The translations under genes were made by a program, and so were the position numbers. The notes below the pieces were generated by a model. The model saw only the letters and a list, made by a program, of their open reading frames with translations. It made no database searches and was not told the origin of the DNA. DNA of 64,000 nt from Eledone cirrhosa (taxonomy: Eukaryota), in NCBI GenBank assembly GCA_964016885.1, contig OZ024742.1, positions 57,536,001 through 57,600,000 of the forward strand. The letters run 5' to 3'. How positions within the stretch are numbered: position 1 is the first letter of the stretch; each line of letters starts with the position of its first letter. This document shows, in pieces, positions 9,276 through 57,600 of this stretch.

Positions 9276-9588
9276 AACTCTATGCAGATACTGCCAACCC
9301 GAGAGAGGTATGTATGTAGATAGGTAAGTAGATAAATATGTTTCTTTATTAGCCACGGGGGCATAAAAGAAGGGGACAAATACAAAGGAGGAAGTTTACA
9401 TACAATAAAAACGTGTAAAATGTTATCACAAATGCAATTTAAAAAGTTAGTCGATTTTCCCCAATAGAGGGAGACAGTTTATATGGGTAACACATACCCC
9501 CGAAAAAATGTGCAACCCTCATCTCCAGGAGTACGAAGAGTTTGTACTCCTTTCCTCTCCTCCTCCTTTTCCTCAACCTACAGGCTGA

Positions 9589-12500
9589 TATAGAGAGAAG
9601 GCCCATTCACTCGGGTATTCTCGCCACTTTCACCCACCTTTCATAAAACTTGCTGGGGTACAGCACCTCTCTCTCCATCCTGATTCTTCTTCCAAAGTGG
9701 TATTTGAAAAAAAGAATCAGTTGTTGGCCGGAGAGAAAGGTGTCTGACCTCAACCCTTTCAACCTTGTCCACCATACAACCTCTTTCGCCATAGCTATCA
9801 CACAAAGGAAAACCGCCTCTCCTTCGTTTTTGAAGGAGGGTGGCGGTTTGATCATGACAATGGACTCGGTGATCAACCGGATTGGTCCCACCCGCGACAA
9901 TAGTCGTTCTACATAGCCCCACAGGTCAGTGACGCCCGGGCAGTGTATGAATGCGTGCTCGACGGTTTCTTCGTCTCGCCCGCACCTCGGACAGATCTTT
10001 TTTGCAGGGTCCCTGCCCGGGCGCCCATGTCTGTAGAGCTTGTCTCGAACTGGTAGAGCTCCTCGGTAGCACTGCCAGGCCAGGGACTTTTGGAAGTTGT
10101 CCATCGGTCCCGGGCGGAAGGTCCTACCGAACAGACTGGCCAGTTCATCTTCCTCTACGCCTAGAGTTTCACCGAGCGCGTCGTCGCACTTGCTGCGGAT
10201 CAACCCTCTATAGAATGACGAAGTGGAGTCTCCACTGATCGCCGGGTCTGCCTGCCAGAGGGCTGTGAGCGCCTGAGCACATTCGATGTGCCAGTCGCCC
10301 ATTTTCCTCGGTCTTTGCTTGACTCAGGACTGCAGCTCGGTCAGCGAGACGAGTCGTGGGAAGGCTCGCCTGACGAACGGGGTCCACACCGGTTGTCCGG
10401 TGAGGAATACGTAGAGATGCCGCAGCCTGAACGCGTGTTTGCGCATCGTCAACCACGGCATCCCCAGCCCTCCGTTAGAAGGGTGTTGGCAGCAGATGGA
10501 TCTTCTCACCAAAGGAGCCCGTCTCTTCCAAAGGAATTGGAAGAGCGCGCGCTCCATTTTGGCGAGCGTTTTGGCTGGACAAGGCACGACGGTCAAGCGG
10601 TAGTAGATGGCGGACGCTATAAAAGTGTTCGCCACCTCCGCTCGACCTTTCAAGGATAGTTTGCACTCGGCCCACTTCTGGGTGAGTGCAAACACCTTGG
10701 CCGTCACTTCGTTCAAGTTCTTCTCCACCTGGAGGTCCGGAACAAACCAGACCCCGAGCAGCTTTACCGGTCCTTCCGTCCAGCGTCCGACGACGCCATC
10801 GGAAGGCATCGGTTTGCCTCTCCACGATCCGAGTTGCAAACCGATGGACTTGTCCCGGTTCAGCTTCGCTCCTGTGAAACTTTCGTATTCCTTCAGTAAG
10901 GTGCCGACTTCCTCGATTTGCGAGGCGCTCGACACCATTACTGTCACGTCGTCGGCGTAGGCCGACGCCGTTTTCCGCAGTCCCGGTTCCAAAGGGATGC
11001 CCTGCAATAGCTCCAACTTCCGCAGTAGTGGCTCGAGAGTCAGTACGTACAGAAGGGAGGAGAGGGGGCATCCCTGTCGAATGGATCGCGTAATATGGAA
11101 CGGCTCCGAGAGGTAGCCGTTCACCTTGACCCTTGAGCAGATGTTGCTGTTGTGCATTGCAGAAATCCAGCCCCTGAACACGAGTCCGAAGCCTGCCGCC
11201 TCGAGCACCGCATCCAGGTAACGATGGTCAACCCTATCGAAAGCCTTAGACTGATCCAAGTTGATCAGGGCCCCACCGAAGCCGGGTTTACACCCTACCT
11301 TCTCTATGATGTATCGCATGAGGTGGAGGTTGTCGTGTATGGATCTGGTCGGGATTGCGCATGTCTGCGCTTCTCCCACCAGGTTCTCGACGACAAGCGC
11401 CAGCCTCTTTGCCAACACCTTGGTCAAAATCTGTAACTCTGTGTTTAGCAGAGTTATGGGTCGGAAGTTGCCTATGTCATCCCCCTTATTCTCGTCCTTC
11501 CTGATTAGTGTGACCACGCCCCCGGTTACAGAACTGGGAATTCTCCCGTTCTGTTGCCAGTTGCAGTAGACCGTTTCCAGGAGACCGGAGAATAAGTCCG
11601 GCATTGCTACGTAAAATTCGAAGGGTAGACCGTCGAGACCTGGAGATTTGCGTTTGCCGCATTGGCTCAGCGCGTCCCTTATCTCAGCGGCTGAAATCGG
11701 CTTTTCGCAGAACTTTGCCTCGCTGTCCGAGAGTCGCGGTAGGCCGTCGAGGTATGGACCGAAATCCATAGCCCCTCCCGGCGCGCCGGCCCGCCCGAAC
11801 AATTGAGAAAAGTGCCGCTGAAAGGCCGCACACATCTGCTTCGGCTCACGTATCACGCGTCGGTTTTGGTCCTTCAAAGACCGAATCGTGGACTTGTTGC
11901 CACTTTTTGCCTCCGTCACTCGAGCCCAGCTAACAGCTTTGGCTCCCTCGTTTCCCAGAGCACGTATTTTGCTTCTGACAACGCAGCCCTCGTGCTTTGC
12001 GTCGAAGAACTGGTCCAAGGCCGTTCTCCTTGCTAGCACGCTGGGTACGTTGCCACTTCTAATTGCTTCTTCTACTTTATCTACCAGTTCCTTCTCGGTT
12101 CTATTTCTATCTAACGCTAATTCTTTACTAAAAACTAACGAGTCTTATCTAACTGCCCTCTTGAGAGAGTACCACCATCTGTTGTTGACAATGGCCCCTG
12201 TCAAGTGCTGTTTAACTAAAGTGCTAATCCGTCTACTGTAGGCTTTGCTTGTCGGTAACGACAAGTTCAGCTTCGAGTAGCCGGGTCCTTGTCTATGGGT
12301 TCTATCAAGGTTGGCCATGCAGGTCACTAGTTTGTGATCTGAATAGGCAACCATGAACATTTGTGGACAGCTTAACATGTCCCTATCCTTATTTCTAACT
12401 AGAACCCTATCTAGGTACGATCTAGATGTTCCGCTACGATTAGTCCACGTCCACAGTAGCGCAGTCGGAAAATCTAGTCGATATCTATCGGCCAGGTCAA

Positions 12501-13010
12501 ATCGGTCGATTAAATGTTTGAGGCTGTTACACCCCTTTATCGGGACATGCTCCCACATAGTCCCAACGTGCATCTAGGATTCCATTCCAGTCCCCCACTA
12601 AAAGCAAGGAGCGGGACGTTCCCAGAAAAGTCTCTAGACGTTTGAAGAAGTCTGGCCGCGGTGTCTCGGGTGGGGCATATGCGGCCACCAGCCTGAAGGC
12701 TCCACCTTCACTACCGTCAACGTCTAGGACCACCAGTCGACCCTCCGGGTCCAGATGTACCGTCTGTGTTACGAGACTCAGATGTTTCCGCAGCAAAACG
12801 GCAACTCCGCCCCCACCCCCGGCCGACAGAGAGATGCGTAGATCTCAAAGTCATCGAAGATGGGGGCCAGCTGTCGCTCGTTGTGGATCCTGGACTCGCA
12901 AATGGCTACCACATCCATACTGTGCGACCTGAGGTCGTTTAAGAGTTGCCCTGTTTCCAGGGCATCCCCAGGCCGCGTACGTTCACACATCCAACTCTTA
13001 TATTGACCAT
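9589..13010 (-). pseudogene. Copy A ORF2 (APE endonuclease + reverse transcriptase + CCHC), broken by stops and frameshifts
   Basis: GDWN, YLDR, SDH; KSPGLDG, FRPITLLN, LDQSKAFDRV, RQGCPLS, AYADD; CPRC..ETVEHAFIHC. Confidence 0.95.
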
Positions 13011-13043
13011 GTTGGTGCTGAAAAGTTAAAAGAGGAAAAGAGA

Positions 13044-14961
13044 TCACTCACCCTTCGTCTCCTGGGGACCAGGCCGCACGATTTCCATGGGGGTGTTGGA
13101 GGGGTTGTCTGGATGGGTGGTGGTTTCCGGCGGGGTGGGGACGGAGATGTTTGGTGGGGTGGGGTCTGGTGGCATGGGGGTGTCTAGGGTGGGGAGACAT
13201 TTGAGAAGGACGCGGTTAAGTGGTTTCACGCAGGAATTCCCCACATCCTTCTCAAATGTTTCTTTTAGGGACCTATAAGTTTCTATAGGGACCCTAATCA
13301 GTTTTAGGTTCAGTTTTTTGTTATTTTAAATAGAGTGGGCGAAAGTTTTCCCTTCGGTTTTCACCGAAGGGTCGTTCGTGATGGTCTCCATTAGTGTTTT
13401 GTTTTCAGTGTTTATGTAAGTGTAAGTGTAATTTTCTTGTGTTGTGTTTGTTTTTGTCTGTAGTTCTTGTGTGTGCTTTCGTTTTGTTGTAGGTATTTTG
13501 TTTTCAGGAGGTGGGGGTTTTGTTTGTGATGTTTTTGTTGTTTGCGTTGGTGGTTGTATGTTTGTGGTAGTGTTTGCTGGTTTTTTGCTTTTGTGATGTC
13601 TTTTCTTTCTTTTCGAGCGATGGGGTTCTCCCTCGTCTTCACTGGGTGATGGCGAGATAGCCTCATCTGTTGTATCGTCTGTGTGATTGGGGATGGGTAT
13701 GTCTTGGGGAGCTGTTGTGTCTGTATGTAATTTTGCAGTGGTTTTAGGTGGAGTGGGGTTGGGTGGGACTGTGTTTGTTGTGGTTATTTTTGTGTGTTGG
13801 TGTTGTTGTTGTTGTGGTGGTGTTGGTGGTTGTGTTGTTTTGATGGGTGTCGGCAGAAGAGCCTTTTTTTACTCATTAATTTAGGACAGGAAGCCCTCAG
13901 GTGACCCCTGCTAAAGCAATGGTAACATGAAGGCCGCCTACCCTCAACCGAAAAGTTTATGTAGGTGAGTCCGTCCAGGAGTACACGTTGTGGGATCATA
14001 GCTATTCGCTCTGGGCTCATTTGCACCAGAACTTGAATGCTAGTCCCATTGAATACATCTCTGGGGGACTTTCCTACTGACAGTATTCTGTCTTCATCAA
14101 AATTGATGAAGCCGCACAGTATCCACCATATGTTCACCTTTGGTGTGACACTCGTGATTTTGATCTTTTGTGTCCTTTTTCCCATGTATGTAGGGAAAAA
14201 GGTGTACAGGTTGGATACAATTGGCGACACAGAGTAATTTGGGGCCGTCAATTGATCCTTCATGAGTACCGAAATACTCCCAAAAAGTTTGCTTCTTTGA
14301 ATGAATGCAACATCATTCATTGAATTTTTGAAAACCAGTTCAATTTCTTTCTGTGACAATTGGACTGGTTTTCGGGTAGAATTGGACACTGTCCTAAAAA
14401 CTATTGTTTTGAGAGCACTTTCCTTGCGAATTTCTACCGGAGAATTGATGCTGAAAGCACCATTTTTTCGAAAGTGACATATCTCCTAGCGTCCTTTAAA
14501 AGTTGTTCGGCATTTGTTATGTCGAGATATATCAGTTCCTCCTTTTTCTGAACTGTCTGTGCAAAGAAGATTTTTGGTTTCTTTGTGGAATTATCCGTGT
14601 TGGTGGTGTTGTCATTATTGTTGTTATTCTTGTTGTCACCGATGTTGATATTATTCGTATTTTCCTTGGTGTTGGTGTTGGTGTTGTTGTTGTCTTTGAT
14701 GCTGGTGTTATTGGTGTTGTCTTTATTTTTTTCTTTGTTGTTGTTATCATTGTTGTTTTTATCATCATTATTGGTGTTGCTGTTATTTTTGTTGTCATTG
14801 AACTGTTTGGTGTCATTTGTGTTGTTTGGATATGAATTTGTTTTTACATTTTCATTTTGTCTTTCCATCTCTATAGTATCTATTGAGAAGGAAAGGGAAG
14901 AAGACGATGTTGACTGCCAGCTCTGTAGTCTTACCGACTCTCCACCACCATTATCGTTCAT
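13044..14961 (-). pseudogene. Copy A ORF1 (gag-like, zinc knuckle), fragmented
   Basis: CYHCFSRGHLRASC (CX2CX4HX4C); YMGKRTQ and EGRRP shared with copies B and C. Confidence 0.9.
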
Positions 14962-15180
14962 AACGTAATCAAACTTATAATATTTTTTTTCAAGAATTCG
15001 ATGGAGAAAAAATTTTTCAAACGAATATTTCGCCCCTGTAGGGGCGAAAATGAGTTGACCCACCACCTGAAGGTCCAGACGGGAGGTCAAGTTACACAAT
15101 AATATAAAATTTAACTGAAAACTCACGTTTTTTTTCTTACATAAATTAACGGAAACTTCTCCGCGAAGTTACACACGTCT

Positions 15181-15212
15181 GATAGAGAGAGAGAGAGAGA
15201 GAGAGATAGATA
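15181..15212. repeat. GATA-(GA)n-GATA spacer between copies A and B
   Basis: Direct reading. Confidence 0.95.
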
Positions 15213-15476
15213 ATTTTCTTTTAATTTGCCACCAGGGCATCAAAAAGTGGGACAAGTACAATAGGGGGAGTTTACATAACAAGGCGTCCTCAATAAGGTG
15301 GAGGCAATAACAAGATATAAAATAATATACAACATAACAAAATAAATTTTATAACAAAATCCTCAATAGGGAGGAGGTACCTTGGGGGGTCGCACACACC
15401 CCCGAAAAAAAGTGTGCAACTCTTCTCCTCAGGAGCACAGAGACGGGGTGCTCCCTTGATCTTTCATCTTCCTCAC

Positions 15477-17764
15477 CTATAGTCTGATGTAGAGTGAAGG
15501 CCCATTCACACGGGCCATTCTCGCCACTTTCACCCATCTTTCATAAAAACGGCTGGGGTGCACCTCTCTCTCCATCCTGATCCTTCTTCCGAAATGATAT
15601 CGGAAGAAACGGACCAGTTGTTGGCCAGAGAGAAAGGTGTCTGACCTCAGTCCTTTCAGACGCGTCCACCATACAACCTTTTTCGCCATGGCTATTACGC
15701 ACAGAAACACCGCCTCTCCTTCGTTTTTGAAGAGGGGAGGCGGCTTGATCGTTACAATAGACTCGGTGGTCAACCGGATCGGTCCCACCCTTGACAGCAG
15801 TTGTTCGACATAGCCCCACAGATCGGCAATGCCCGAGCAGTGTACCAATGCGTGTGCAACGGTTTCCTCGTCGCACACGCATCTGGGACAGATCTTTTTC
15901 GAGGGGTCTCTACCCGGGCGCCCGTGTCTGTAAGGCCTTTCTCGAACGGGCAGAGCCCCTCGGTAGCACTGCCAGGCCAGGGACTTCTGGAAGTTATCCA
16001 TGGGTTCCGGGTCGAATGTCCTACCGAACAGGTTGGCCAGTTCGTCTTCCTCCATGCCTAGGGCTTCTCCGAGGGCGTCGTCGCACCTGCTAACCACCAG
16101 CCCTCTATAGAATGACGAGGTGGATTCTCCACTGGCAGCCGGGTCCGCCTGCCAGAGAGCCGTGAGCGCCTGGCCAAAATCTTTAACTCTGTGTTTAGCA
16201 GGGTTATGGGCCGAAAATTATTTATACTATCCCCCTTGTTCTCGTCCTTCCTCACCAGCGTGACTACGCCCTTGGCTACAGAACAAGGAATTCTCCCGTT
16301 CTGCTGCCAATTGCAGTAGACCACTTCGAGGAGTTCGGAGAAGAAGACCGGCATTGCTAAATAAAGTTCGTAAGGTATACCATCGAGACCTGGAGATTTG
16401 CGTCTGCTGCATTGGCTCAGCGCATCTCCGATCTCATCAGCCGAGATTGGTCCCTCGCAGGATTCTGCCTCTTCGCTCGAGAGACGCGGCAGGCCGTCGA
16501 GGTATGGACCGAAATCCACGCCCCCGCCCGGACCCTCGCCTCCCCCGAACAATCGGGCAAAGTGCCTTTGAAAGGCCTCGCACATCTGCTTAGGCTCCCG
16601 GATCACCCGTCCATCTTCGTCTTGCAACGACCGGATTGTGGATCGATTTCCACTCTTAGCTTCTGTCACGCGGGCCCAGCCAACGGCTTTGGCCCCCTCA
16701 TTACCTAGAGCACGTATTTTACTTCGAATGACGCAGCCTTCGTGCTTTGCATCGAAAAACTGGTTCAAGGCCGTCCTCGATGCCAGCACTCTGGCCACAT
16801 CTTCGCTCTTGATTGCCTCTTCTAATTTACCTGTTAATTCTTTCTCGTTTCTATTCCTATCGGCAGCTAACATCTTGCTATAACTTATTGATTCTGTTCT
16901 AATCTCTCTTTTGAGAGATGCCCACCATCGGTTGTTGACGATTGCACCCGTCAACCTCTCCTTAACTAATCTGCTAATCCGGTTTCTCTAAGTCTCTTTT
17001 GCCGGTAAAGACAAATTAAGTTTCCAGTAACCGGGACCCTGTTTATGTGTTTTCTCGAGATTGACTACGCAGGTCACTAATTTGTGGTCCGTGTAGCCAA
17101 CCGTGCGCATTTCTGGACAGCTTAATATGTCCCTATCCTTACTTCTAACTAAGAATCTATCTAAGTACGATCTAGATTGACCACTATGGTTTCTCCAAGT
17201 CCAGGTAGGCACAGTTGGAAAATCTAGTCGATATCGATCGACCAAGTTAAAACGGTCGAGTAACTCCTTGAGGCTGTTACACCCCCCTCTATTAGGACAT
17301 GCTCCTGCATAGTCCCAACGTGCATCTAGGATGTCATTCCAATCCCCCGCTAGAAGCAGGGAACGCGATGTTCCCAGAAAAGTCTCCAAACGCTGGAAGA
17401 AGTCGGGCCGTTCAGCTCCGAAAGGGGAGTAGACGGCGACCAGTCTCAAGGCCGCACTTTCACTACTGCCAACGTCTAGCACCAACAAACGACCCTCCGG
17501 GTCCGAGTGCACAACCTGTACGGCAAGACCCAGGTGTTTTTGCAGCAGTACGACAACCCCACCCCCACTTCCAGGTTGACAGAGAGATGCATGCACCTCA
17601 AAGTCATCGAAGGTGGGGGCCAGCTGCCGCACGACGCTGATTCGAGTCTCACAGATAACCATTACATTTATACTACATGACCTGAGGTCATTTAGAAGCT
17701 TTGCTTGCTTCCAAGTTGAGCCCAGGCCACGTGCATTCAAACATCCTACTCTTAACACATCCAT
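15477..17764 (-). pseudogene. Copy B ORF2 (APE domain retained, RT core deleted)
   Basis: VGCLNARGL, VICETR, GDWN, TDH; C-terminal CPRC..ETVAHALVHC; no YADD segment. Confidence 0.92.
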
Positions 17765-17797
17765 GTGGGCGGCAGAGCCAAAGGAGAGTGTAGAGGC

Positions 17798-19669
17798 CTA
17801 CCTTTCCGCTTCCCGGGGTTCGGGTTGCACGACTTCCATGGGGTCGGGGGTGTTGCGTGAAGGGGTGTCTTGTGGTGGTGTGGGGTCGTCAGTGTGTGGT
17901 GGGGTTGGGGTGTTTGCAGTTGTGTTGGGGAGGGGAAGGGGAGGGGGAAAGCTTTTTAGTAGGACGCGGTTTATGGGTTTGACAGAAGGTGGTCCTACGT
18001 CCTCCTTAAAATCCTTTTTTAGTTTTTGGTAGAGGTTCATTGGGATCTTTATTAATTTTAAATGTGAGTAGTTTTCTGAAGAAACAAAGTTTACACCTTC
18101 GGTTTGTACCGAAGGATTATTGTATATGAGTTCATTTAATTTATTATTGTTTCTGTTGATGTAAGTATAGTGTAATGTCTTTTTTTCGGATGGTGTGAGT
18201 GTTTCGAAGAGGGGAGGGGCAGGTTTGGTTTTGTTTGTTGCTGGAGGGGTGTTTTCTGTTTTGTTGGATTGTGTTGAGATTTGGGTGGGGTTTGTTTGGC
18301 CTTGTGTGTTTTGCACATGTTTTCTTTTTTTCCTTTTAATCTGTCTGAAGGACTCCGTTTCTTCCTCCGAATTCGTTGGGTTATCTTCAGTGTTGGAGGG
18401 AAGAGGTATGTTTGCTGGTAATGTTTCCGTGTTGGTTTTCTTTGTGGGGGAGATGGATGTCACTATGTTAGACTGTGTTGTGTGTTGTGTCTGCGGTGGT
18501 TGTGTTGTTTTATTGAGTGAGAGGTTGGGTGGGCCTGTATTTTGTTTTGGGGTAATGTGTTGTGGTGGTGGTGTGGTTTTACTGAGGGACGGGTTGGGTG
18601 GGACTGAGTTTTGTTGGTGGAGGAGCTGGTGTTGGTAGCAGGGTTTTCTTTTTGTTGAGTTGGGGACAAGCGGCCTTCAGGTGCCCTCTGCCTGCACAGA
18701 TATGGCAGGACGGCCTTCTCCCCTCCACGCTAATGTTCATATACCCGTGGTCCTCTAATAGGATTCTGTCGGGTATTTGGGCGATGCGTTCAGGCTTCAT
18801 TTGCACTACCAGCTCTATACCTGTTCCACTGAACGCATTGCCTGTGGTTTTCCCAATGGAAATCACGTTGTCATTCACTGGATCGATGAAGCCAGCTATG
18901 AGCCAGCAGTAGTCCACATCTGGCATCATTGCATCCAGCCATATGCGTTGAGTTCTTTTACCCATATAAGATGGATAAAAGGTAAAATTTTTCGAACGAA
19001 TCGGTGACAAAGCACATTTTTTTGCCGCCGATTCGTTCTTCATGATAATTGCTAGGCTTCCATACAGTCTGTCTTTTCTTATGAAAGTGGTTTCATTAAG
19101 TACTTCTGTGAGTACTGTTTTGATATCTGCTTGAGAAGGCTGTTCAGGTTTTTTTGTACTGTTGTTGATGGTCCGAAACTCGACCGTTCGGCTTTCAATG
19201 TCTTTGGTGAATTCTTGAGGCATTTTTACCAATAAAATACCATTCTCTCCTTCACTTATGTATTGTTTGGCGTCTGTGATCCTTCGTGCCACATCTGAAA
19301 TATTTTCCGGTATATAAGTCAAAGATTTCTTTGTTTTCTGTGCAAATGAAATCTTGTCGTCTGCTTTGCTTTCTGTTATGGTGTTATTTTCAAATGTTAT
19401 TTTTGTGTTTGTTGTGTCTTTGTTTGTGTTATTAGTATTGTCATGCAATTTTTCAAATTTTTTTTTCTCGTTGTTGGAATCCATGTTCAGATTTTTTTTT
19501 TTCGTCATTTTTCGTCATTTTTTTTCTCCGCAGATTCGTCTGTTTTTATTTTAATTTTTCCTTCCTTCTCTATGACGTTAGTTGGGAAGGAAGGGGGGAC
19601 TAAAGCGTGCGAGCTTACAACTCTTACCGCTGTCCCCCCACCACTATTTTCGTTCGCTGCGTTTAACAT
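17798..19669 (-). pseudogene. Copy B ORF1, frameshifted
   Basis: CHICAGRGHLKAAC knuckle; KDRLYGS, YPSYMGKRTQ; Pro/Thr linker; conserved C-terminal block. Confidence 0.9.
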
Positions 19670-19898
19670 TTCTGTTAGACGATTGAAATTTTTTTTTGCC
19701 ACAAAATTTTTTAAAACAGGTTTTTCACCTCTAGGAGGGGTAAAGATGAGCTGACCCACCGCCTGACAGTTCAGACGGGGGGTCAAGCTACACAATTGTA
19801 TCAAAATTAAGTTTGAACTCACAAAATTTCCTCAATAAATTTGAACAAAACTTCTGCGCGAAGTGAATTACATCCACACTGTAGAACAGACGACAGCT

Positions 19899-19962
19899 AG
19901 ATTATTATAGATATATAGATAGATAGACAGATAGATAGATAGATAGACAGATATATATATAG

Positions 19963-20027
<65 letters not shown>
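19899..20027. repeat. (GATA)n microsatellite between copies B and C
   Basis: Direct reading. Confidence 0.97.
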
Positions 20028-20028
<1 letters not shown>

Positions 20029-20259
20029 ATTTCTATTTATTTGCCACGAGGGCACAAAAGAAGGGGACATTTACACAGTGGGGGAGTTTACATAAATCGA
20101 GTAAAGAAAAAAGGAATAACAATAATAATATAACAATAAAAAGTCCTCAAAAGGGAGGGGGCGTGTTGGGGATTGCACATACCCCCGAAAAGTGTGCAAC
20201 TCTTTTCGCGGGGGAAGCCCAGAGAGGAGGCGCTCCCCCTTTCCTCTTCACTTTTTCAC

Positions 20260-23200
20260 CTACAGAACAATGTAGAGAGAAGGCCCATTTACACGGGTCA
20301 TTCTCGCTTCTTTCACCCACCTTTCATAAAACTGTCTGGGGCCAAGCACTTCTCTCTCCATCCTGATCCTTCTTCCGAAGTGGTATCGGAAGAAGTAAAC
20401 CAGGTGATGGCCGGAGAGAAAGTCACCCGACCTCAGACCTTTCAGGCGCGTCCACCACACAACCTCTTTCATCATGGCTATTACGCACAGAAAGACCACC
20501 TCTGCTTCATTTCTGAAGGGAGGAGGCGGCTTGATGTTCACCACAGACTCGACGGTTAATCGAATCGGCGCCACACGCGACAGCAGTCGTTCGACGTAGG
20601 CCCACAGATCGGCAACGCCCGGGCAGTGTACCAGTGCATGCGCAACGGTTTCCTCGTCGCGCACGCATCTGGGACAGATCTTTTTCGCGGGATCCCTGCC
20701 CGGGCGCCCGTGTCTGTAGAGCTTTTCTCGAACGGGCAGAGCCCCCCGGTAACACTGCCAGGCTAGGGACCTCTGGAAGTTGTCCATGGGTCCCGGGCCG
20801 AAAGTTCTACCGAACAGGCTGGCCAGTTCGTCCTCCTCCATGCCTAGCGACTCTCCAAGGGTGTCGTCGCCCTTGCTAGCCACCAACCCTCTATAGAATG
20901 TCGAGGTGGATTCTCCACTGATAGTCGGGTCCGCTTGCCAGATAGCCGTGAGCGCCTGGGCACACTCGGTGTGCCAGTTGCCCAGTTTTCTCGGTCTTTG
21001 CTTCACCCAGGATTGCAGTTCGGTGAGCGAGACGAGCTGTGGGAAGGCTCGCCTCACAAACGGGGCCCACACCGGCTGACCGTTGAGGAATACCTGTAGA
21101 TGCCGTAGCCTCAATGCGTGCCTACGCATCAACAGCCACGGCATACCCAGCCCTCCTTTCGAAGGGTGCTGGCAGCAGATCGATCTCCTCACCATGGGAG
21201 GCCGTTTCTTCCAGATGAACTGGAAGAGCATGCGTTCCATGATGGTGAGCTTTTCCTTGGGGCAAGGCACGACGGTCAGGCGGTAGTAGATGACGGACGC
21301 TATGTAAGCGTTCGTCACCTCCGCCCGACCTTTCAGTGATAGTTTGCACTTGGCCCACTTCTGGGTCAGCGCAAACACCCTGCTCGTCACCTCGCCCCAA
21401 TTCTTCTCCACCTGGAGGTCCGGTCCGAACCAGACCCCGAGCAGCTTCACCGGGCCCTCCGTCCACCGCCCGACGACACCGTCTAACGGCATCGGTTTGC
21501 CCCTCCACGTTCCGAGTTGCAAACCGACTGACTTGTCCCGGTTCAGCCTAGCCCCCGTCAGCCTTTCGTATTCCTCCAGTAGGGAGGCGATCGCCCCGAT
21601 TTCCGACGCGTCCGCCACCATTACTGTTACGTCGTCGGCAAAGGCCGAGACCGCTTTGTGCAATCCCGGTTCCAGGGGTATGCCCCGCAGCAACTCCAAC
21701 TTCCGCAGCAGTGGCTCGAGAGTCAATACGTACAGAAGGGAGGAGAGGGGGCACCCCTGTCTGATGGACCGGGTGATTTGAAACGGCTCCGAGAGGTAGC
21801 CGTTTACTTTAATCCTAGAGTAGATGTTGCCACTGTGCATGGCAGAAATCCAGCCCCTGAAAACGGGTCCGAAGCTCGCCGCCGCTAGCACCGCATCCAG
21901 GTAACCATGGTCGACCCTATCGAACGCCTTAGATTGATCCAAGTTGATCAGGGCCCCACCAAAGCCGGGTTCGTTGCCAACCCTCTCTACGATGTATCGC
22001 ATGAGGTGGAGGTTGTCGTGAATGGACCTGGACGGGATAGCGCATGTCTGCGCGTCTCCCACCAAACCACCCACCACAAGCGCCAACCTCTTCGCCAACA
22101 CCTTGGCCAAAATCTGTAACTCTGCATTTAGCAGAGTTATGGGCCTAAAGTTACTTAAGTCGTCCCCTTTGCTCTCGTCCTTCCTCACTAGCGTGACCAC
22201 GCCCTTGGTCACAGAACAGGGAATTCTCCCGTTCTGTTGCCAGTTGCAATAGACAGCCTCGAGGAGTTCGGAGAACAAGACCGGCATAGCTAAATAAAGT
22301 TCGTATGGTAGACCATCGAGACCCGGAGATTTGCGTCTGCTGCATTGGCTGAGCGCTTCCCCGATTTCAGTGGCTGTGATTGGCCTTTCGCAGCACTCCG
22401 CTTCGCCTCTCGAAAGACGCGGTAGACCGTCGAGGTATGGACCGAAGTCCACATCCCCGTCCGGCCCCCCGCCCCCTCCGAACAGTCGAACAAAGTGCCT
22501 TTGAAAGGCCTCGCACATCCGCTCAGGTTCAAGGATCACCCGTCCATCCTGGTCTCGCAAAGACCGAATGGTGGATTTAATCCCACTCTTGGCTTCTGTC
22601 ACGTGGGCCCAGCTAACAGCTTTGGTCCCCTCGTTTCCTAAAGCACGTATTTTACTTCGGACAACGCAGCCTTCGTGCTTCGCGTCAAAGAACTGGCTCA
22701 ACGCCGTTCTCGCCGCTAACACTCTGGCCACGTCTCCGCTCCTAATCGCCTCTTCTAGTTTATCTGTTAACTCCCTTTCCTTCCTATTTCTATTTGCCGC
22801 TAGTTCCTTACTGTAACCTATCGAACTTACTCTAATCTCTCTCTTTAGAGATACCCACCACCTGCTGTTGACGATCGCTCCCGTCAACCGCATCTTAACT
22901 AAGCTACTAATCCGGTTCCTGTAATCTTTCTTTGCCGGCAAGGACAAGTTCATCTTCCAGTAACCGGGACCCTGTCTATGCGTTCTATCAAGGTTGACCA
23001 CGCAGGTCACTAATTTGTGATCTGAATAGCCAACCATGATCAGTTCTGGACAATTAAATACGTCCCTATCCTTACTCCTAACCAAAAACCTATCTAGGTA
23101 CGATGTAGATTGTCCACTGCGGTTTGCCCAGGTCCAGGATGGCGCAGTTGGACAATCTAGTCGAAATCTATCGACCAGGTCGAATCGATCGAGTAACCCC

Positions 23201-23692
23201 TTGAGGCTGCTACACCCCCCTCTATCGGGACATGCCCCTGCATAGTCCCAACGCGCATCTAGGATTCCATTCCAGTCCCCCACTAAAAGCAGGGAACGCG
23301 ACGTTCCTAGAAAAGTCTCCAGACGCTGGAAGAAGTCGGCTCTTTCCGCCCCGAAGGGGGCATAAAGACCGACCAGTCTGAAAGCCCCGCCTTCACCGCC
23401 TCCGACGTCCAGCACCAGTAATCGACCCCCCGGGTCCGAGTGAACAATCTGTACGTCGAGAGCCAGACGTTTATCCAGCAGTACGGCAACTCCCCCCCCC
23501 CCCGCCTCCGGGTTGACAGAGAGATGCGTGCATCTCAAAGTCATCGAAGGCGGACGCCAGCTGTCTCACGCTGCTGATCCGACTCTTGCAAACAACCATC
23601 ACATCTATACTTTGTGACCTGAGATCACTTAGAAGCTTTGCTTGCTTCCAAGCTGAGCCCAGGCCACGCGCGTTCAAACAGCCAACTCTCAA
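20260..23692 (-). CDS. Copy C ORF2 polyprotein (APE-RT-CCHC), one frameshift at the C run near 23492-23503
   Basis: 1094-codon ORF plus the upstream frame MRVGCLNARGL; AFADD, QGCPLS, KAFDRV, SDH, CPRC..HALVHC. Confidence 0.92.
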
Positions 23693-23697
23693 TTGAT

Positions 23698-25538
23698 CTA
23701 TTTTGGTGTTGAAAGTGAAGAAAGAAAAGCACCTACCTCTCCGGGTTGTGTAATTTCCATGGCATTAGGTGTGTTGGGTGGAGGGATGTTTTGTGGTGGT
23801 GTGGGGGTACCCGTGTGTGGTGGGGTTGGGGTATTTGGAGTTGTGTCAGGGAGAGGGGCGGTTATGGGGAAATCTTTCAAGAGGACGCGATTTAACGGTT
23901 TTAAACAGGGGGGGGGGGGGCTCACGTCCCGTCTAAATTGTTCTTTTAAGGAACGATAAAGGTCCAGAGGGACCTTTATCATTTTTAAATGGGTGAAGTT
24001 CTCTGTTGAGATAAAGTTTGGCCCTTCGGTCTGCACCATAGGGTTATTGTTTATTAATTTAACCAGTTTTTTGTTTTCTTTATTTATATATGTGTATTGC
24101 AACGTCTTTTTTTGTGATGCTGTCAATGTTTCGGAGAGGGGAGGCGCAGATTTATTTTTGTTTGTTGAGGGTGGGGTGTTTTTGATTGGAGTTGGTGTTT
24201 GTGTGTGGGTTATTTGTGGTGTGCTGGGTGTGTGTTTTCTTTTTTTTCTTTTAACTTGTCTGAAGGCTTCTCCTCCTTCTTCTTCAGAAGTTGGGGGAAA
24301 CTCTTCAGCGCTAGGTGGGAGGGACGTGTTGTGTGGTTGTTGTTTTTTTTGCGGGAGGGGTAGATTTGTTACTGTTTTTTTTATTATTTGTTTGGAATGG
24401 GTTTTGTGGTGGTGGTGGTAATGTTTGTGTCGTGCTTGTGGTTGGTGATGGTGGTGGTGATGTTTGTGTTGTGGTTGGTGGTGGTGATTTTTGTGTCGTG
24501 CTTGTGTTTGGTGCTGGTGGTGGTGATGTTTGTGTTGTGTTTGTGGTTGGTGGTGTCTGTATTTTGTTTGCTGTGTGTGGTATTAGTGTATTTTTGGAGG
24601 TGGGTGGTGTTGGTGTACTGTTTGTGGTGGGTGTGAGCAATAGTCCTTTTTGGGGGATACGTTTCGGGCAGTTAGCCTTAACGTGTCCCCTTTCCGTGCA
24701 TAAATAGCATGCTGGTCTTCTCCCCTCTACAATTATATCTATTGGGGTAAGGTCATCCAGCCAGATGCGATCCGGGATTTGTGCTATTCTTTCGGGCCTC
24801 ATTTGGACTAGTATGTCGAGGCCCATTCCCAGGAACGCATCTCCAGTTGCCTTCCCCATTGACAGCATTGTGTCTTCGCCCATGTCTATGAAGCCAGCAA
24901 TAGCCCACCAGAAGTCCATTGTGGGCAGCATTGTTTTTACTTTTACTCTCTGTGTTCTTCTACCCATGTAGGAGGGATAGAAGCTGTATGTTGTCGATGA
25001 GAGTGGGCTTAGGGAAAGCTTCTCCGCCGTTTCCTTGTCTTTTGTTAAGACCGAAATGCTGCCATAGAGTCGGTCCTTTCGTATGAAGAGAATATTCTTC
25101 ATATAGTCTTTTAGGACCAACTCTATTTCCATTTGGCTGGGCTGTGCTGGCTTTCTTGTTTGGTTCAATATAGTTCTGAAGAGAACTGTGCTCTCTGTTC
25201 TGGCTTTCTTGAATTCTGGGGGGGGGAGTTAATGGAAAACATTCCGTTCTCCCCCAAGACTATTTGTTTTTTCGCTTCGGCCAGTTTTTCTCTGGCGGCA
25301 GTTAAGTCAATTGGTGTGTATGTTATGGATTGTTTTGTTTTCTGGGCGAAAGTTGCCCTGTTGTTATTTGTATTATTTTCTGTTTGTTTGTTTTCCGTTT
25401 GCTCATTTTCCTTAACATTTGTTTTTTCATTTTCCTTGTTTGTTTCGTTGTCTAATTTTGTTGTAATTATTTTTTGTTCTTCAGACTTGGGGGGGCGTGG
25501 CAGAGCTAATGGCAGACATGTCTGCCATCTTTTCCACC
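23698..25538 (-). pseudogene. Copy C ORF1, interrupted
   Basis: CYLCTERGHVKANC knuckle; RKDRLYGS, YPSYMGRRTQ; split across three ORF pieces. Confidence 0.9.
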
Positions 25539-25742
25539 ATGCTGCCAAGAAAGAAATTTTTCGGAAAAAAAGATATTTATTTTACCCCCTAAAAAGGGGG
25601 TAAATGCAAAAATGTTTCCCTAAATAACAGGGGTTAGTGTTCCAAATGTGTTGCACTGAAAAATGTATCCGGTACTTACTATAGTAAGGGTAAATCCCGA
25701 TGGAATAGCGGAGCCGATGTGAAGCGTGTCTTACTCTATCAA

Positions 25743-25842
25743 GATAGATAGATAGATAGATAGATAGGTATGTATGTAGGTAGGTAGGTAGGTAGGTAGG
25801 TAGGTAGGTAGGTAGGTAGGTAGGTAGGTAGGTAGGTAGGTC
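25743..25842. repeat. (GATA)n-(GTAT)-(GGTA)n compound microsatellite at the 5' end of copy C
   Basis: Direct reading. Confidence 0.97.
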
Positions 25843-34569: not shown

Positions 34570-35160
34570 AAATTAATATATAACTATATACATATATTAT
34601 TTTGCTTGATTTCCATGATTCTTGAGGTTGGTTTCTTCAAAGAAATCTGTTCGCTCTTCAGAAGTATTTGCAACTTGCAACTTATATATTCTAAATCACG
34701 TTGAATTATGTTGAGTTTACACTGAAAACCCTTAATAAAGCCAAACACGGTGTTAATAGATTTCCCTGGCCCTTGCAGCTTGATATTAACTTCATTCATG
34801 TGCAATAGAAAATTCTTAAAACATATTACTATTACTGGGCCAAGCAAAATCATTTAGCTGACAAACCATGCTCCATACTTTTCAAATTTAAAAGTGATTT
34901 GATTCTATTTAAACATTCAACAAACCATTCAAGAACTCGACCATCGTACATTATTGCACATAGGTAAAACCATTATAAACCAATTTAACTTCATTTAAAC
35001 GTAAATGAAATTCTCATTTATGCAAAGCCCTGGCAACATTCAAACTAACTGTTTGTCACAATTCCATCATTTTATTCATATCATTAACGACTATATTTGT
35101 GAATATTACTTCCTGGTGTATAATACAATGGAGAAAAAAAGCAAGATAAAAAACAGTTGC
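34570..35160 (-). pseudogene. hAT (SPIN/Buster-like) transposase remnant, central part
   Basis: LHMNEVNIKLQGPGKSINTVFGFIKGFQCKL matches the LNELN.KLQG....I..M...VKAF..KL motif. Confidence 0.75.
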
Positions 35161-35167
35161 TATTTTT

Positions 35168-35958
35168 GCACTTGGGATGCTATCCAGTGCAGCCTGGCCT
35201 CAGACAGGCTCACGCGCCAGCTCGACCAGCACCGCCTTGCTTGTTTTCGTGCAGCCTCCAAACCCCACAGTGGTGCCTGGCTCCATGCTCTGCCCTCCTT
35301 CTCCACTGGCACGCAGCTAGCAAACCATAGCCTGCGAATCGGCGTTTCCCTGAGGCTCGGCCTCCGGATCTGCCAGCCACACCAATGTCGGTGCGGTTCC
35401 ACCGTGGACTCTTTCGACCTCCACTTTCTTTCCTGTCGCCACAGTGCCGGCCACATTCCACGCCATACTGCCCTCAACGAGGTCATTAAGCATGGCTTGG
35501 ACGCTGCAGGCTTCCCTTCACAGCTCGAGCCGGTGAGGCTGGATCGAGGGGACGGCAAAAGGCCAGATGGCATGACCATCTTCCCGTTCCGCGGTGGCAA
35601 ACCCCTCGTCTGGGATGTCACTTGCACCGACATTTTCTGCAGCCGCAACCTGGTGCAGTCTGCGACTGACCCAGGTTCTGCTGCACGTCGGGCTGAGGGG
35701 GCCAAACTCCTAAAATACCGGTCGCTCTCCGACAGGTTTGCGGACGTTCCCCTGGCAGTGGAGACTTCTGGTGTCCTCGGCCCCAGAGCTACCTCCTTAC
35801 TCACCACCATAGGCGCTGAGCTTGCCAGCCGCAAGTGTGAGCCCCGCGAATTGGAGTGGCTTTTCCAGTGCGTCTCCCTTGCCGTCCTTCGAGGAAACGC
35901 CTTCTCCATTCTGTCCACCGGGGCTGTGGGTGGGCCCCATCGCGTACCAATACATTAG
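35168..35958 (+). mobile_element. 5'-truncated CRE-clade (RLE-type) non-LTR retrotransposon
   Basis: SGAWLHALP, RLGL..C.PHQCRCG..VD....H.LSC, RH.ALN, RPDG..WDVT, KY, PLAVET.G, RGNA; GC-rich island in AT-rich DNA. Confidence 0.9.
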
Positions 35959-36124
35959 TTAAATGCCATTCAATATAATAGTTATAGCTAACTTAGATAA
36001 TTATATATATAAACAACAGTTGTTTCTGTAAATCGCTTTATAAAATCAGCGTTTCAGCCTACCGTATTAAAGGCACCATCAGTCGTAAAACCTTCTTTGA
36101 TTTATTAGACTCCACCGTGAAAAT

Positions 36125-36790
36125 ATCCTGTGATAACAACTGTCGTGCCATAACAGCTATCATGTATATAATACCGCATGAGTAATTATAGCTATCGTGT
36201 AATAACAGATATTGTATAAGTAACAGCCATCGAGTAATAACAGTTATTGTGTTATAACAAATATCGTGTAATAACAGCTATCACGTAATAATAGCTGTCG
36301 CATAATGACTGATATCGTTTAATAAGAGATATCATGCAATAACAGATAACATATAATTGTTTCTACTTTTGGCACAAGGCCAGCAATTATCCCAGTGCAT
36401 AACATATAATGACAGCTAAAGTGTTATAACAGATATTGTGTATTAACAGTTATTGTATAATAACAGCTATAGTGTTATTACAGATATCGTGTATTAACAG
36501 TTATTGTGTAATAACAGCTATAGTATTATAACAGCTATTGTTTAATGGCAGCTATCGTGTAATAACAACTACCGTGTAATAACAGCAACCGTGTAATAAC
36601 AACTACTGTGCAATAACAACTACTGTGTAATAACAGCTACTGTGTAATAACAGCTATAGTATTATAACAGCTATTGTTTAATGGCAGCTATCGTGTAATA
36701 ACAACTACCGTGTAATAACAGCAACCGTGTAACAACTACTGTGCAATAACAACTACTGTGTAATAACAGCTACTGTGTAATAACAGCTAA
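36125..36790. repeat. 17-bp minisatellite (CTGTGTAATAACAGCTA-like) with a higher-order duplication
   Basis: Repeating GTGTAATAACA[G/A]C[T/A]A; block ~36505-36640 repeated at ~36641-36780. Confidence 0.9.
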
Positions 36791-39194: not shown

Positions 39195-39397
39195 CGTGTG
39201 TATGCATATTCGTGTATATACATCGAAGTGTCATAGTTGCTGGAACGTCTGCAAAAATGCCTTGCAGTATTCGTTCTGTCTAGGATCTGAGTTCAAGTCA
39301 TCCCCAGGGTCATCTTTGCCTTATATATTTATGTGAGTATCTTTGTGTCATAGGCACCTAGATATACATCACAGGCATCCATAATATCAACAAGAGA

Positions 39398-39400
39398 TAG

Positions 39401-39495
<95 letters not shown>

Positions 39496-39564
39496 GGTGG
39501 TGGTGGTGGTGGTGGTGGTGGTGGTGGTGGTGGTGGTGATGGCGGCGGCGCCGGTAGTGGTGGC

Positions 39565-39609
<45 letters not shown>

Positions 39610-39666
39610 GGTGGTGGTGGTGGTGGTGGTGGTGGTGGCGGCGGCGGCGCCGGTAGTGGTGGCAGC

Positions 39667-39702
<36 letters not shown>

Positions 39703-39753
39703 GGTGGTGGTGGTGGTGGTGATGGTGATGGCGGCGGCGCCGGTAGTGGTGGC

Positions 39754-39805
<52 letters not shown>

Positions 39806-39962
39806 ATGGTGATGGTGATGGCGGTGGCGCCGGTAGTAGTAGTAGTAGTAGTAATGGTGGTGGTGGTGGTGGTGGTGGTGATGGTGATGGTGATGGCGGC
39901 GGCGCCGGTAGTGGTGGCAGCAGTAGTAGTAGTAGTAGTAGTAGTAGCAATAGCAGCAGCAC
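39398..39962. repeat. Compound (TAG)n/(TGG)n repeat with a recurring GGCGGCGCCGGTAGT node
   Basis: Direct reading; five nodes. Confidence 0.95.
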
Positions 39963-40530
39963 CAACAACGACAACACCAGCAGCGACTGTGCTTGTTTAC
40001 AGTGTAAAGTCTGCTAGCAATATTAACATAACGAAAGCCACTTTAAGATCTATAAAAACGACCGCAGAGCTTCTAGTGGTGTTATTGCCTGCAAGTGTAT
40101 GCACATATGTGCAGATATGTATTATATTTTTGAATGTATGTGCACACTTTCACCACCATGGTGTCTCTATATGCATGTTATGTCAGTGTAGGTGTATTAT
40201 GTACACCTCAAGATGTGTGTGTAAAATATAGTGAATATTTATGTATATGTGTGCCCATGCTAAAATTTATTGCGTATTCAGGTGTACGACTATATGCATG
40301 TGTGTGCATTCATGTGTGTAGGAATGCATTTGTGTATCAGTACATGCATGTGAGTGCATGCGTGTGTGAAGTCATGTTTGTCGCTACATGTTTATAAGTG
40401 CATGTGTGTGAGGACACACTTTTTTCTGTGTGTGTGTGTGTGTGTATAAGCATCTCTCTGATACTATGTCTATTTTCTGTTCTATTGCGTACACGCTGCA
40501 CTTTGTGCAGAGATAGAGAGAATGAGAGAC

Positions 40531-54525: not shown

Positions 54526-54669
54526 ATACTGTTTACTGATGTCTTTATAATCTTCAGTATTTGTTGCTGATATTCTTGTTACCCCCCCCCCCCCCCACGC
54601 TAAACACACTCAGTGTTACTTTTCAGTCGTTTTTGCAGCATTTTTGTATTTATTTCATTTTAATTTAAT

Positions 54670-57600
54670 GTGTGGTAGTGATGGAGGTGGAGGTAGTGGT
54701 CGTGATAGTGTTGGTGGTGGAGGTAGTAGTCGTGGTAGTGTTGGTGGTGGAGGTAGTGGTCGTGGTAGTGATGGTGGTGGTGGAGGTAGTGGTTGTGGTA
54801 GTGTTGGTGGTGGTGGAGGTAGTAGTCGTGGTAGTGTTGGTGGTGGTGGAGGTAATGGTCGTGGTAGTGATGGTGGTGGTGGAGGTAGTGTTCGTGGTAG
54901 TGTTGATGGTGGAGGTAGTGGTCGTGGTAGTGATGGTGGTGGAGGTAGTGGTCGTGGAGGTGTTGGTGGTGGAGGTAGTGGTCGTGGTAGTGTTGATGGT
55001 GGAGGTAGTGGTCGTGGTAGTGTTGGGGGTGGTGGAGGTAGTGGTCGTGGTAGTGTTGGTGGTGGTGGAGGTAGTGGTCGTGGTAGTGTTGGTGGTGGTG
55101 GAGGTAGTGGTCGTGGTAGTGTTGGTGGTGGTGGAGGTAGTGGTCGTGGTAGTGTTGGTGGTGGTGGAGGTAGTGGTCGTGGTAGTGTTGGTGGTGGTGG
55201 AGGTAGTGGTCGTGGTAGTGTTGGTGGTGGAGGTAGTGGTCGTTATAGTGTTGGTGGTGGAGGTAGTGGTCGTCGTAGTGTTGGTAGTGGAGGTAGTGGT
55301 CGTGGTAGTGTTGGTGGTGGAGGTAGTAGTCGTGGTAGTGTTGGTGGTGTTGGAGGTAGTGGTCGTGGTAGTGTTGGTGGTGGAGGTAGTGGTCGTGGTA
55401 GTGTTGGTGGTGGTGGAGGTAGTGGTCGTGGTAGTGTTGGTGGTGGAGGTAGTGGTCGTGGTAGTGTTGGTGGTGGAGGTAGTAGTCGTGGTAGTGTTGG
55501 TGGTGTTGGAGGTAGTGGTCGTGGTAGTGTTGGTGGTGGAGGTAGTAGTCGTGGTAGTGTTGGTGGTGTTGGAGGTAGTGGTCGTGATAGTGTTGGTGGT
55601 GGAGGTAGTAGTCGTGGTAGTGTTGGTGGTGTTGGAGGTAGTGGTCGTGGTAGTGTTGGTGGTGGAGGTAGTGGTCGTGGTAGTGTTGGTGGTGGTGGAG
55701 GTAGTGGTCGTGGTAGTGTTGGTGGTGGAGGTAGTGGTCGTGGTAGTGTTGGTGGTGGAGGTAGTGGTCGTGGTAGTGTTGGTGGTGGAGGTAGTGGTCG
55801 TGGTAGTGTTGGTGGTGGAGGTAGTGGTTGTGGTAGTGTTGGTGGTGGAGGTAGTAGTCGTGGTAGTGTTGGTGGTGGAGGTAGTAGTCGTGGTAGTGTT
55901 GGTGGTGGTGGAGGTAGTGGTCGTGGTAGTGTTGGTGGTGGTGGAAGTAGTGGTTGTGGTAGTGTTGGTGGTGGTGGAGGTAGTAGTCGTGGTAGTGTTG
56001 GTGGTGGTGGAGGTAATGGTCGTGGTAGTGATGGTGATGGTGGAGGTAGTGTTCGTGGTAGTGTTGGTGGTGGAGGTAGTGGTCGTGGTAGTGATGGTGG
56101 TGGTGGAGGTAGTGGTCGTGGTAGTGTTGTTGGTGGTGGTAGTGGTCGTGGTAGTGTTGATGGTGGAGGTAGTGGTCGTGGTAGTGTTGGGGGTGGTGGA
56201 GGTAGTGGTCGTGGTAGTGTTGGTGGTGGTGGAGGTAGTGGTCGTGGTAGTGTTGGTGGTGGTGGAGGTAGTGGTCGTGGTAGTGTTGGTGGTGGTGGAG
56301 GTAGTGGTCGTGGTAGTGTTGGTGGTGGAGGTAGTGGTCGTTATAGTGTTGGTGGTGGAGGTAGTGGTCGTGATAGTGTTGGTGGTGGAGGTAGTAGTCG
56401 TGGTAGTGTTGGTGGTGTTGGAGGTAGTGGTCGTGGTAGTGTTGGTGGTGGAGGTAGTGGTCGTGGTAGTGTTGGTGGTGGTGGAGGTAGTGGTCGTGGT
56501 AGTGTTGGTGGTGGAGGTAGTGGTCGTGGTAGTGTTGGTGGTGGAGGTAGTGGTCGTGGTAGTGTTGGTGGTGGAGGTGGTGGTCGTGGTAGTGTTGGTG
56601 GTGGAGGTAGTGGTTGTGGTAGTGTTGGTGGTGGAGGTAGTAGTCGTGGTAGTGTTGGTGGTGGAGGTAGTAGTCGTGGTAGTGTTGGTGGTGGTGGAGG
56701 TAGTGGTCGTGGTAGTGTTGGTGGTGGTGGAGGTAGTGGTCGTGGTAGTGTTGGTGGTGGAGGTAGTGGTCGTGGTAGTGTTGGTGGTGGAGGTAGTGGT
56801 CGTTATAGTGTTGGTGGTGGAGGTAGTGGTCGTGGTAGTGTTGGTGGTGGAGGTAGTGGTCGTCGTAGTGTTGGTGGTGGAGGTAGTGGTTGTGGTAGTG
56901 TTGGTGTTGGTGGAGGTAGTGGTCGTGGTAGTGTTGGTGGTGGAGGTAGTAGTCGTGGTAGTGTTGGTGGTGGAGGTAGTGGTCGTGGTAGTGTTGGTGG
57001 TGGAGGTAGTGATCGTGGTAGTGGTGGTGGTGGAGGTAGTGGTCGTGGTAGTGATGGTGGTGGAGGTAGTAGTCGTGGTAGTGTTGGTGGTGGAGGTAGT
57101 GGTCGTGGTAGTGTTGGTGGTGGAGGTACTGGTCGTCGTAGTGTTGGTGGTGGAGGTAGTGGTCGTCGTAGTGTTGGTGGTGGTGGAGGTAGTGGTCGTG
57201 GTAGTGTTGGTGGTGGAGCTAGTGGTCGTGGTAGTGTTGGTGGTGGAGGTAGTGGTCGTGGTAGTGTTGGTGGTAATGGAGGTAGTAGTCGTGGTAGTGT
57301 TGGTGGTGGAGGTAGTGGTCGTGGTAGTGTTGGTGGTGGAGGTACTGGTCGTCGTAGTGTTGGTGGTGGAGGTAGTGGTCGTCGTAGTGTTGGTGGTGGT
57401 GGAGGTAGTGGTCGTGGTAGTGTTGGGGTGGAGCTAGTGGTCGTGGTAGTGTTGGTGGTGGAGGTAGTGGTCGTGGTAGTGTTGGTGGTGGTGGAGGTAG
57501 TGGTCGTGGTAGTGTTGGTGGTGGAGGTAGTGGTCGTGGTAGTGTTGGTGGTGGAGGTAGTAGTCGTGGTAGTGTTGGTGGTGGTGGAGGTAGTGTTCGT

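Follow-up and report, generated by a model that had tools for sequence, protein, structure and literature searches.

We identified in a 64,000-nucleotide stretch of the Eledone cirrhosa genome (contig OZ024742.1 of assembly GCA_964016885.1, positions 57,536,001 to 57,600,000; hereafter, the window) an array of Tx1-like long interspersed nuclear elements (LINEs) whose group has a well-supported specificity for (TATC)n microsatellites. The sequences make it very probable that this is a recently active group of several subfamilies that insert into (TATC)n/(GATA)n in one orientation genome-wide, likely through nicking of the GATA strand by their apurinic/apyrimidinic-type endonuclease (APE). The LINE segments of the window are co-oriented on the minus strand and separated by four tracts of GATA, GA and GGTA repeat (TATC-type); in the whole 64 kb, a 12-base GATA/TATC run occurs outside the array at a single further place (43878).

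The target preference was evaluated in genomic copies of the three elements of the array (E1, E2 and E3), collected as top BLAST matches with the window's own copy excluded. A junction was scored as on target when a TATC-phase run of 8 nt lay no more than 24 nt away. By this measure, 78 of the 87 full-length 5' junctions follow a TATC run (28/29, 24/29 and 26/29 in the three sets) and none follows one in the opposite orientation (0/87). Once copies preceded by another family end were removed, 46 of 53 had a run (18/18, 17/22 and 11/13). On the 3' side, 67 of the 87 junctions have a TATC run (24/29, 22/29 and 21/29) and, again, none is opposite (0/87). GAAA, two subfamily-typical bases and then TATC make up 80 of these 87 junctions, and no poly(A) was seen at any of the 87 3' ends. 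Further, all 38 full-length E3 copies chosen by their 3' end, from a set of 39 drawn from two contigs (C1 and C2), have TATC on both sides. The background frequency of such runs is 0.2% (102 of 49,920 strand-windows) in a sample of 600 kb of evenly spaced genome. In that same unselected sample, TATC adjoins three of the four family 3' ends, the fourth being the off-target copy L364 (loci are numbered with the prefix L).

The key control comes from 5'-truncated copies because these are unable to carry a repeat head. Of the initial 54 candidates, 23 had element sequence extending further upstream and were set aside, leaving 31 copies at 30 break points. A TATC run precedes 21 of the 31 in the strict window, 23 when 16 nt are allowed for microhomology, and 13 of the 19 that have no family end upstream. 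These frequencies bear out the fixed-orientation (GATA/TATC)n target proposed in a first-pass annotation of the window, which had named random 5' flanks in other copies as the observation that would reduce the repeat to a product of the element; the 5' flanks of other copies are not random. It is true that TATC follows every young 3' end and that extra units stand at some 5' junctions (as in L136), as would be the case if the element merely made its own 3' tail or 5' head at otherwise random sites. We consider this explanation extremely improbable, given that truncated copies incapable of a head still follow TATC, that 3' tracts frequently depart from a perfect repeat as early as the first or second unit and that off-target copies add no TATC.

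Target duplications lead to the same conclusion. Off-target copies duplicate 12–15 bp without added TATC, which identifies the repeat as target and not tail; in L364, for example, a perfect 15-bp duplication directly follows the element end. Other duplications, readable where the flank is imperfect, measure approximately 17, 14, 12, 10 and 15 bp at L173, L178, L187, L214 and L220, a single mismatch or microhomology being present in some of them. At L168, L171 and L213, a duplication of at most 5–6 bp is possible, which argues against a fixed length. Thus, the range extends from about 5 bp or fewer to the 20–21 bp found at L136. In a separate observation, one flank of the off-target truncated copy L204 is the reverse complement of the other, as though the copy lay inside the centre of a palindrome.

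Several observations weigh against this interpretation. Because the copies are top BLAST matches, the sample is biased towards young ones. Ten of the 31 truncated junctions have no run in the strict window and six truncated copies have no duplication. The 5' junction of L136 also carries 12 extra TATC bases, so some repeat can be added. One copy of subfamily A (a source of E2, see below) lies inside pure (TA)n, and TA-rich off-target sites are tolerated; the preference for TATC is therefore strong, not absolute. A joint skipping the array (an empty allele) was not present among those listed from the contigs of four runs, a result that is uninformative either way. Apart from these points, when the E1 3' end was searched against four runs of four other organisms, some loose ends were GATA-, GA- or GGTA-like, a weak hint from single contigs or from matches of low agreement.

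In the mechanism that we propose, the APE endonuclease would nick the GATA strand where two units meet (to within ~2 nt), and target-primed reverse transcription would begin just past the AATAAA..GAAA-NN end of the RNA. The second nick would be variable in position, and the ORF2 protein (ORF2p; ORF, open reading frame) may bind the RNA at a conserved 3' hairpin. Each insertion would leave a TATC tract on each side, next to which later copies of any subfamily could land. In the available text of PMC4494074, target choice is attributed mainly to the endonuclease, which cuts first. A loosely specific endonuclease could instead nick TA-rich DNA, with only those GATA ends that anneal to read-through TATC in the RNA priming well. 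Such pairing would fit the failure to copy poly(A) despite the AATAAA, the TA or TAT with which off-target sites still start and the extra TATC units beside the duplications at L180 and L136. We judge it unlikely, however, in view of the perfect L364 duplication, made with no TATC added, and of a sister lineage (described below) with precise ~16-bp non-repeat targets, which point to protein-encoded recognition. RNA pairing and endonuclease recognition may also act together.

The same insertion process offers an explanation for the arrays. A co-oriented neighbour accompanies 25 of the 38 full-length copies and none has an antisense neighbour within 450 nt downstream, consistent with the early suggestion that regenerated targets let arrays grow. 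A family 3' end is already present in 34 of 81 upstream tracts, compared to 3 of 105 random tracts of at least 8 nt. This excess, the frequent neighbours and the long arrays formed by the sister lineage without microsatellites would also be expected if the family preferred sites beside its own 3' ends, beyond microsatellite targeting. Yet the excess was gone after matching tract length by BLAST (31/71 versus 2/8 at 16 nt or more, p 0.46; 23/51 versus 2/3 at 24 nt or more; the control is small and of low power), and we regard an added preference of this type as improbable. The initial estimate of the excess (p ~1e-12) was rejected because the motif classifier had missed two occupied control tracts and length was unmatched; the BLAST analysis that replaced it was not significant. 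Since long tracts are few and frequently hold a family copy already (2 of 8 long TATC tracts do so in the 600-kb sample), arrays can arise without extra self-targeting: regenerated targets and the saturation of long tracts are enough, as far as a small control can tell. Random insertion followed by selective survival or tandem duplication within microsatellites would account for L131 and L132, which share two private substitutions, and for L169, a tandem pair with an identical break. As a general explanation, we give it hardly any credence: none of the 174 full-length 5' and 3' junctions is opposite, the phase is base-exact and the pattern is already present in copies diverged by 0.55%. Moreover, no private substitution is common to L135 and L136, a tandem pair, and neighbours in the window are only 75–82% identical.

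The window array illustrates these features (Table 1). In the sense direction it reads (TACC)n..(TATC)6, E3, (TATC)~30, E2, TATC-(TC)n-TATC, E1 and a degenerate TATC/TACC tract, and every copy in it carries frameshifts or stops. The elements share 75–82% of their ORF2 DNA and 46–53% of the protein sequence in their ORF1 cores, and their 5' untranslated regions (UTRs) hardly align to one another; the array is, therefore, not a tandem duplication, in agreement with the separate insertions first described. That description of three co-oriented elements between four repeat junctions was correct in orientation and tracts, and needs two amendments. First, the family end rule (GAAA plus 2 nt, then TATC, as in 80/87 copies) makes bases 9335–9338 a TATT variant of the target and places the end of E1 at 9339, not 9335. 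Second, E2 is a chimera that joins sequence from two subfamilies. Over its 5' 3.72 kb, E2 is 96–99% identical to all five fetched copies of subfamily A, whose own 3' ends match E2 at 81–82%, and over its 3' 0.96 kb it is 96–97% identical to all six fetched copies of subfamily B, whose middles match it at 77–81%. The two parts (E2a and E2b) join at a 3-bp microhomology near 16172–16174. Because E2 fuses A and B, the array holds four subfamilies and not three. It probably once contained four copies, until a microhomology-mediated deletion removed the middle junction; template switching is the alternative origin of the chimera. A private reverse transcriptase (RT) deletion in E2 was also considered and is ruled out by the chimeric structure.

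Table 1. Components of the LINE array in window coordinates (zf, zinc finger)
Feature	Position	Strand	Remarks
Degenerate TATC/TACC/TACA tract	9301..9338	-	3' flank of array, target remnant
E1, full-length decayed Tx1-like LINE	9339..15180	-	One subfamily throughout
E1 ORF1 core with CCHC knuckle	~14485-13787	-	
E1 ORF2 (APE-RT-zf)	~13038-9607	-	Disrupted by stops and frameshifts
Spacer TATC-TATC-(TC)n-TATC	15181..15212	-	TC run ahead of the head common among 5' junctions of the E1 subfamily
E2b, 3' 0.96 kb of subfamily-B copy	15213..16174	-	Compared with L419-L424 (96-97%); ORF2 C-terminus, 3' UTR, hairpin, AATAAA-like signal
E2a, 5' 3.72 kb of subfamily-A copy	16172..19903	-	Compared with L414-L418 (96-99%); 5' UTR, ORF1 with knuckle, APE (Pfam Exo_endo_phos), start of RT
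(TATC)n tract, ~30 units with interruptions	~19904..20027	-	
E3, full-length copy, youngest subfamily	20028..25742	-	APE, RT, zf-RVT in ORF2; 3' end with hairpin and AATAAA, without poly(A)
E3 ORF1	~25540-23701	-	Frameshift near 24360
E3 ORF2	~23764-20260	-	Frameshift near 23520
(TACC)n-(TACA)2-TACC-(TATC)6 tract	25743..25842	-	5' flank of array, target remnant

The 5' ends have some features of their own. At full-length 5' junctions, a short inverted repeat, TCTATC-TT-GATAGA (25735–25748 in the window), arises where the E3 head meets the target, and the 5' UTRs of E1 and E2a share a predicted long hairpin (~15050–15095 and ~19745–19790) with changes on both arms. A 5' ribozyme as the cause of the precise 5' ends was not indicated, as no Rfam match came near the gathering score between 8700 and 26300; the predicted 5' UTR hairpins likewise have no Rfam match.

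First-look searches with the three 3' ends yielded 2105, 969 and 2604 candidates, and those with the three 5' ends 663, 1198 and 813, figures that are not copy numbers; in each search the best 40 candidates were scored and 30 given as loci. Locus L121, for which sequence from the wrong side had been retrieved, was excluded. The 134 distinct 3' ends cluster into five groups of at least three plus many singletons, and close family matches make up ~9.8 kb (~1.6%) of the 600-kb sample. Full-length copies account for 38 of the 39 E3-family copies chosen by 3' end, the mean pairwise distance among these copies is 0.55% and 11 of the 38 keep both ORFs (a 611-aa ORF1 and an ORF2 frame of ~1166 aa), which marks the subfamily as very young. 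ORF2 has Pfam matches to Exo_endo_phos, RVT_1 and zf-RVT, with catalytic motifs present, and no domain match to RNase H; all three window ORF1s carry a CX2CX4HX4C knuckle. In a survey of ORF2 starts in the E3 family, with the anchor matched in 37 of 39 sequences, no listed variant had an ATG ahead of the first APE motif (window 23680–23750; L122–L160). An ATA overlaps the ORF1 stop in this subfamily and a TTG lies shortly downstream; E2a has an ATG. The missing ATG suggests that ORF2 of the E3 subfamily may start by non-AUG reinitiation or frameshifting. By motif only, E2a and E3 have donor-like AG/GT sequences close to where ORF1 ends (~17790 and ~23735), and each of the three 3' parts has an acceptor-like, pyrimidine-rich TAG/GT sequence where ORF2 ends (~20260, ~15480 and ~9580).

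The initial assignment to the Tx1 clade is likely correct, being favoured by domain layout, ORF1 knuckle and target preference and weakly supported in the RT tree. The elements have an N-terminal APE, an RT, a C-terminal zinc finger and no RNase H match, together with a CCHC ORF1 and a target preference; a CCHC zinc knuckle in ORF1 is a criterion of the Tx1 clade, in which target preference is common but not required. The poly(A) and T-rich TTTT/AA site of mammalian-type L1 are not found, and the ends read GAAA-NN and then TATC. In the tree (71 sequences, 354 columns, FastTree), the family forms its own lineage with a support of 1.0, which includes a protein of Argonauta hians (66% identical) and an unnamed group at 41–45% identity. 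Counting against the assignment, this lineage joins the clade of TX1-named and U2 small nuclear RNA (snRNA)-flanked, Keno-like elements at only 0.75, and as sister rather than nested within it. The best clade-informative named match is the TX1 149 kDa protein (30%).

DNA of the sister lineage was located on CAXXMW01 contigs (L301–L345, L349, L353) that are 92–99% identical to the proteins of the unnamed group. It resembles the octopus family in ORF2 (41–43% identity), the CCHC knuckle, a 3' hairpin with AATAAA but without poly(A) and long head-to-tail arrays. It differs in that its short spacers are subfamily-specific, non-repeat duplications of ~16 bp (one element has identical 16 bp on both sides); no TATC or GATA 12-mer occurs in 427 kb of overlapping loci. 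The hairpin ahead of AATAAA has a CTNGT-type loop in both groups and a swapped stem (GCC/GGC versus GGC/GCC), an arrangement suggestive of a conserved ORF2p signal in the RNA. Stacking without poly(A) thus looks like a trait of the lineage, and the TATC target like a particularity of this branch. Within the same genome, a ~70%-identical relative (L368, C2:150000001-150010000) has a similar 3' end followed by (ATT)n. Relatives in JGI metagenomes (mostly 24–33% identical, one 44%) have no TATC runs. Some metagenome elements are flanked by or contain U2 snRNA, as in Keno (L223, L231, L232, L221, L226, L234), and one is followed by 5S rRNA, as in Mutsu (L237). CAXXMW01 itself is a bin labelled as a bacterium, and many of its contigs carry eukaryotic LINE arrays alongside AT/GT microsatellites, so that it looks like contamination from the host animal.

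Elsewhere in the window, a plus-strand open frame of 317 aa (35005–35958) combines a Cys/His motif with a C-terminus that may be nuclease-like; it has no Pfam match and may be a piece of another retroelement. Also present are a 17-bp minisatellite (36124–36789) and, at ~54550–63470 and 39330–40040, very long satellites of GGT/AGT triplet type.

That LINEs can target repeats is an established principle; what is new here is the TATC unit and the test system it offers. The first-pass annotation suggested that no GATA-targeting Tx1 family had been described, which holds for the articles that we searched, where none was found, but does not extend to Repbase or Dfam; the supplements of PMC4494074 may add targets. 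The available part of PMC3812793 gives ACAY, AC, TC, TTC and TAA as targets, GATA not being among them, and L1-Tx1 elements of cephalopods or molluscs appear in the accessible text of three articles with no target given there (PMC13282606, PMC8967140, PMC10294476). As excerpted, PMC10088271 mentions a Tx1 target published only in Repbase Reports, so a GATA/TATC target could likewise be recorded there. By the 20% flank rule for target preference, as worded in the part of PMC4494074 at hand, the TATC family is far above the threshold. The non-repeat targets of the sister lineage hint at an origin independent of Kibi and Koshi, the teleost families specific for TC and TTC repeats. We can conceive, tentatively, of a separate invertebrate lineage that acquired microsatellite targeting independently, switches targets fast (TATC, the (ATT)n relative and several 16-bp sister sites) and has come to occupy a substantial fraction of the long GATA tracts of its host. 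If so, the APE specificity code could be tested directly on close, intact endonucleases that differ in target, a matter of interest because APE recognition of microsatellites by LINEs is described as poorly understood in the portion of PMC3812793 available. Intact young copies, at least four subfamilies with one target, the (ATT)n relative and a sister with other targets would serve as a natural domain-swap series. The family has also shaped the host genome, with ~1.6% of the 600-kb sample and two of eight long TATC tracts occupied; 6-kb insertions may, therefore, break up GATA markers in this animal.

Among known systems, Keno is the U2 snRNA-specific member of Tx1. Outside the family's own lineage, RT matches are best to the metagenome elements flanked by U2, but these differ in identity (~30%), target, poly(A)-like ends and branch. 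Waldo, Mino, Dong and Togen are of R1, R4 and NeSL-related lineages. Like the TATC family, these elements are microsatellite-specific, Waldo for ACAY, Mino for AC and Dong for TAA (PMC3812793, in part) and Togen for (TG)n, the latter reported along with tandem Utopia insertions (PMC4640811, in part); units and lineages differ. Closer in type are the crocodilian Tx1 families of (TTCC)n and (TTTC)n (PMC4494074, from the text at hand), which share a tetranucleotide preference and several families per target class, and differ in the unit. Kibi, in (TC)n, and Koshi, in (TTC)n, are Tx1-clade families of teleosts (PMC4494074, PMC3812793, both in part) and likewise APE-type elements without long terminal repeats, with microsatellite-specific insertion into a unit that is pyrimidine-rich as written in those papers. 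As with Kibi and Koshi, the microsatellite stands on both sides of insertions here, truncated ones included. The unit, however, is TATC (80/87 3' junctions) and not TC, TTC, TTCC or TTTC, with TC runs only secondary.

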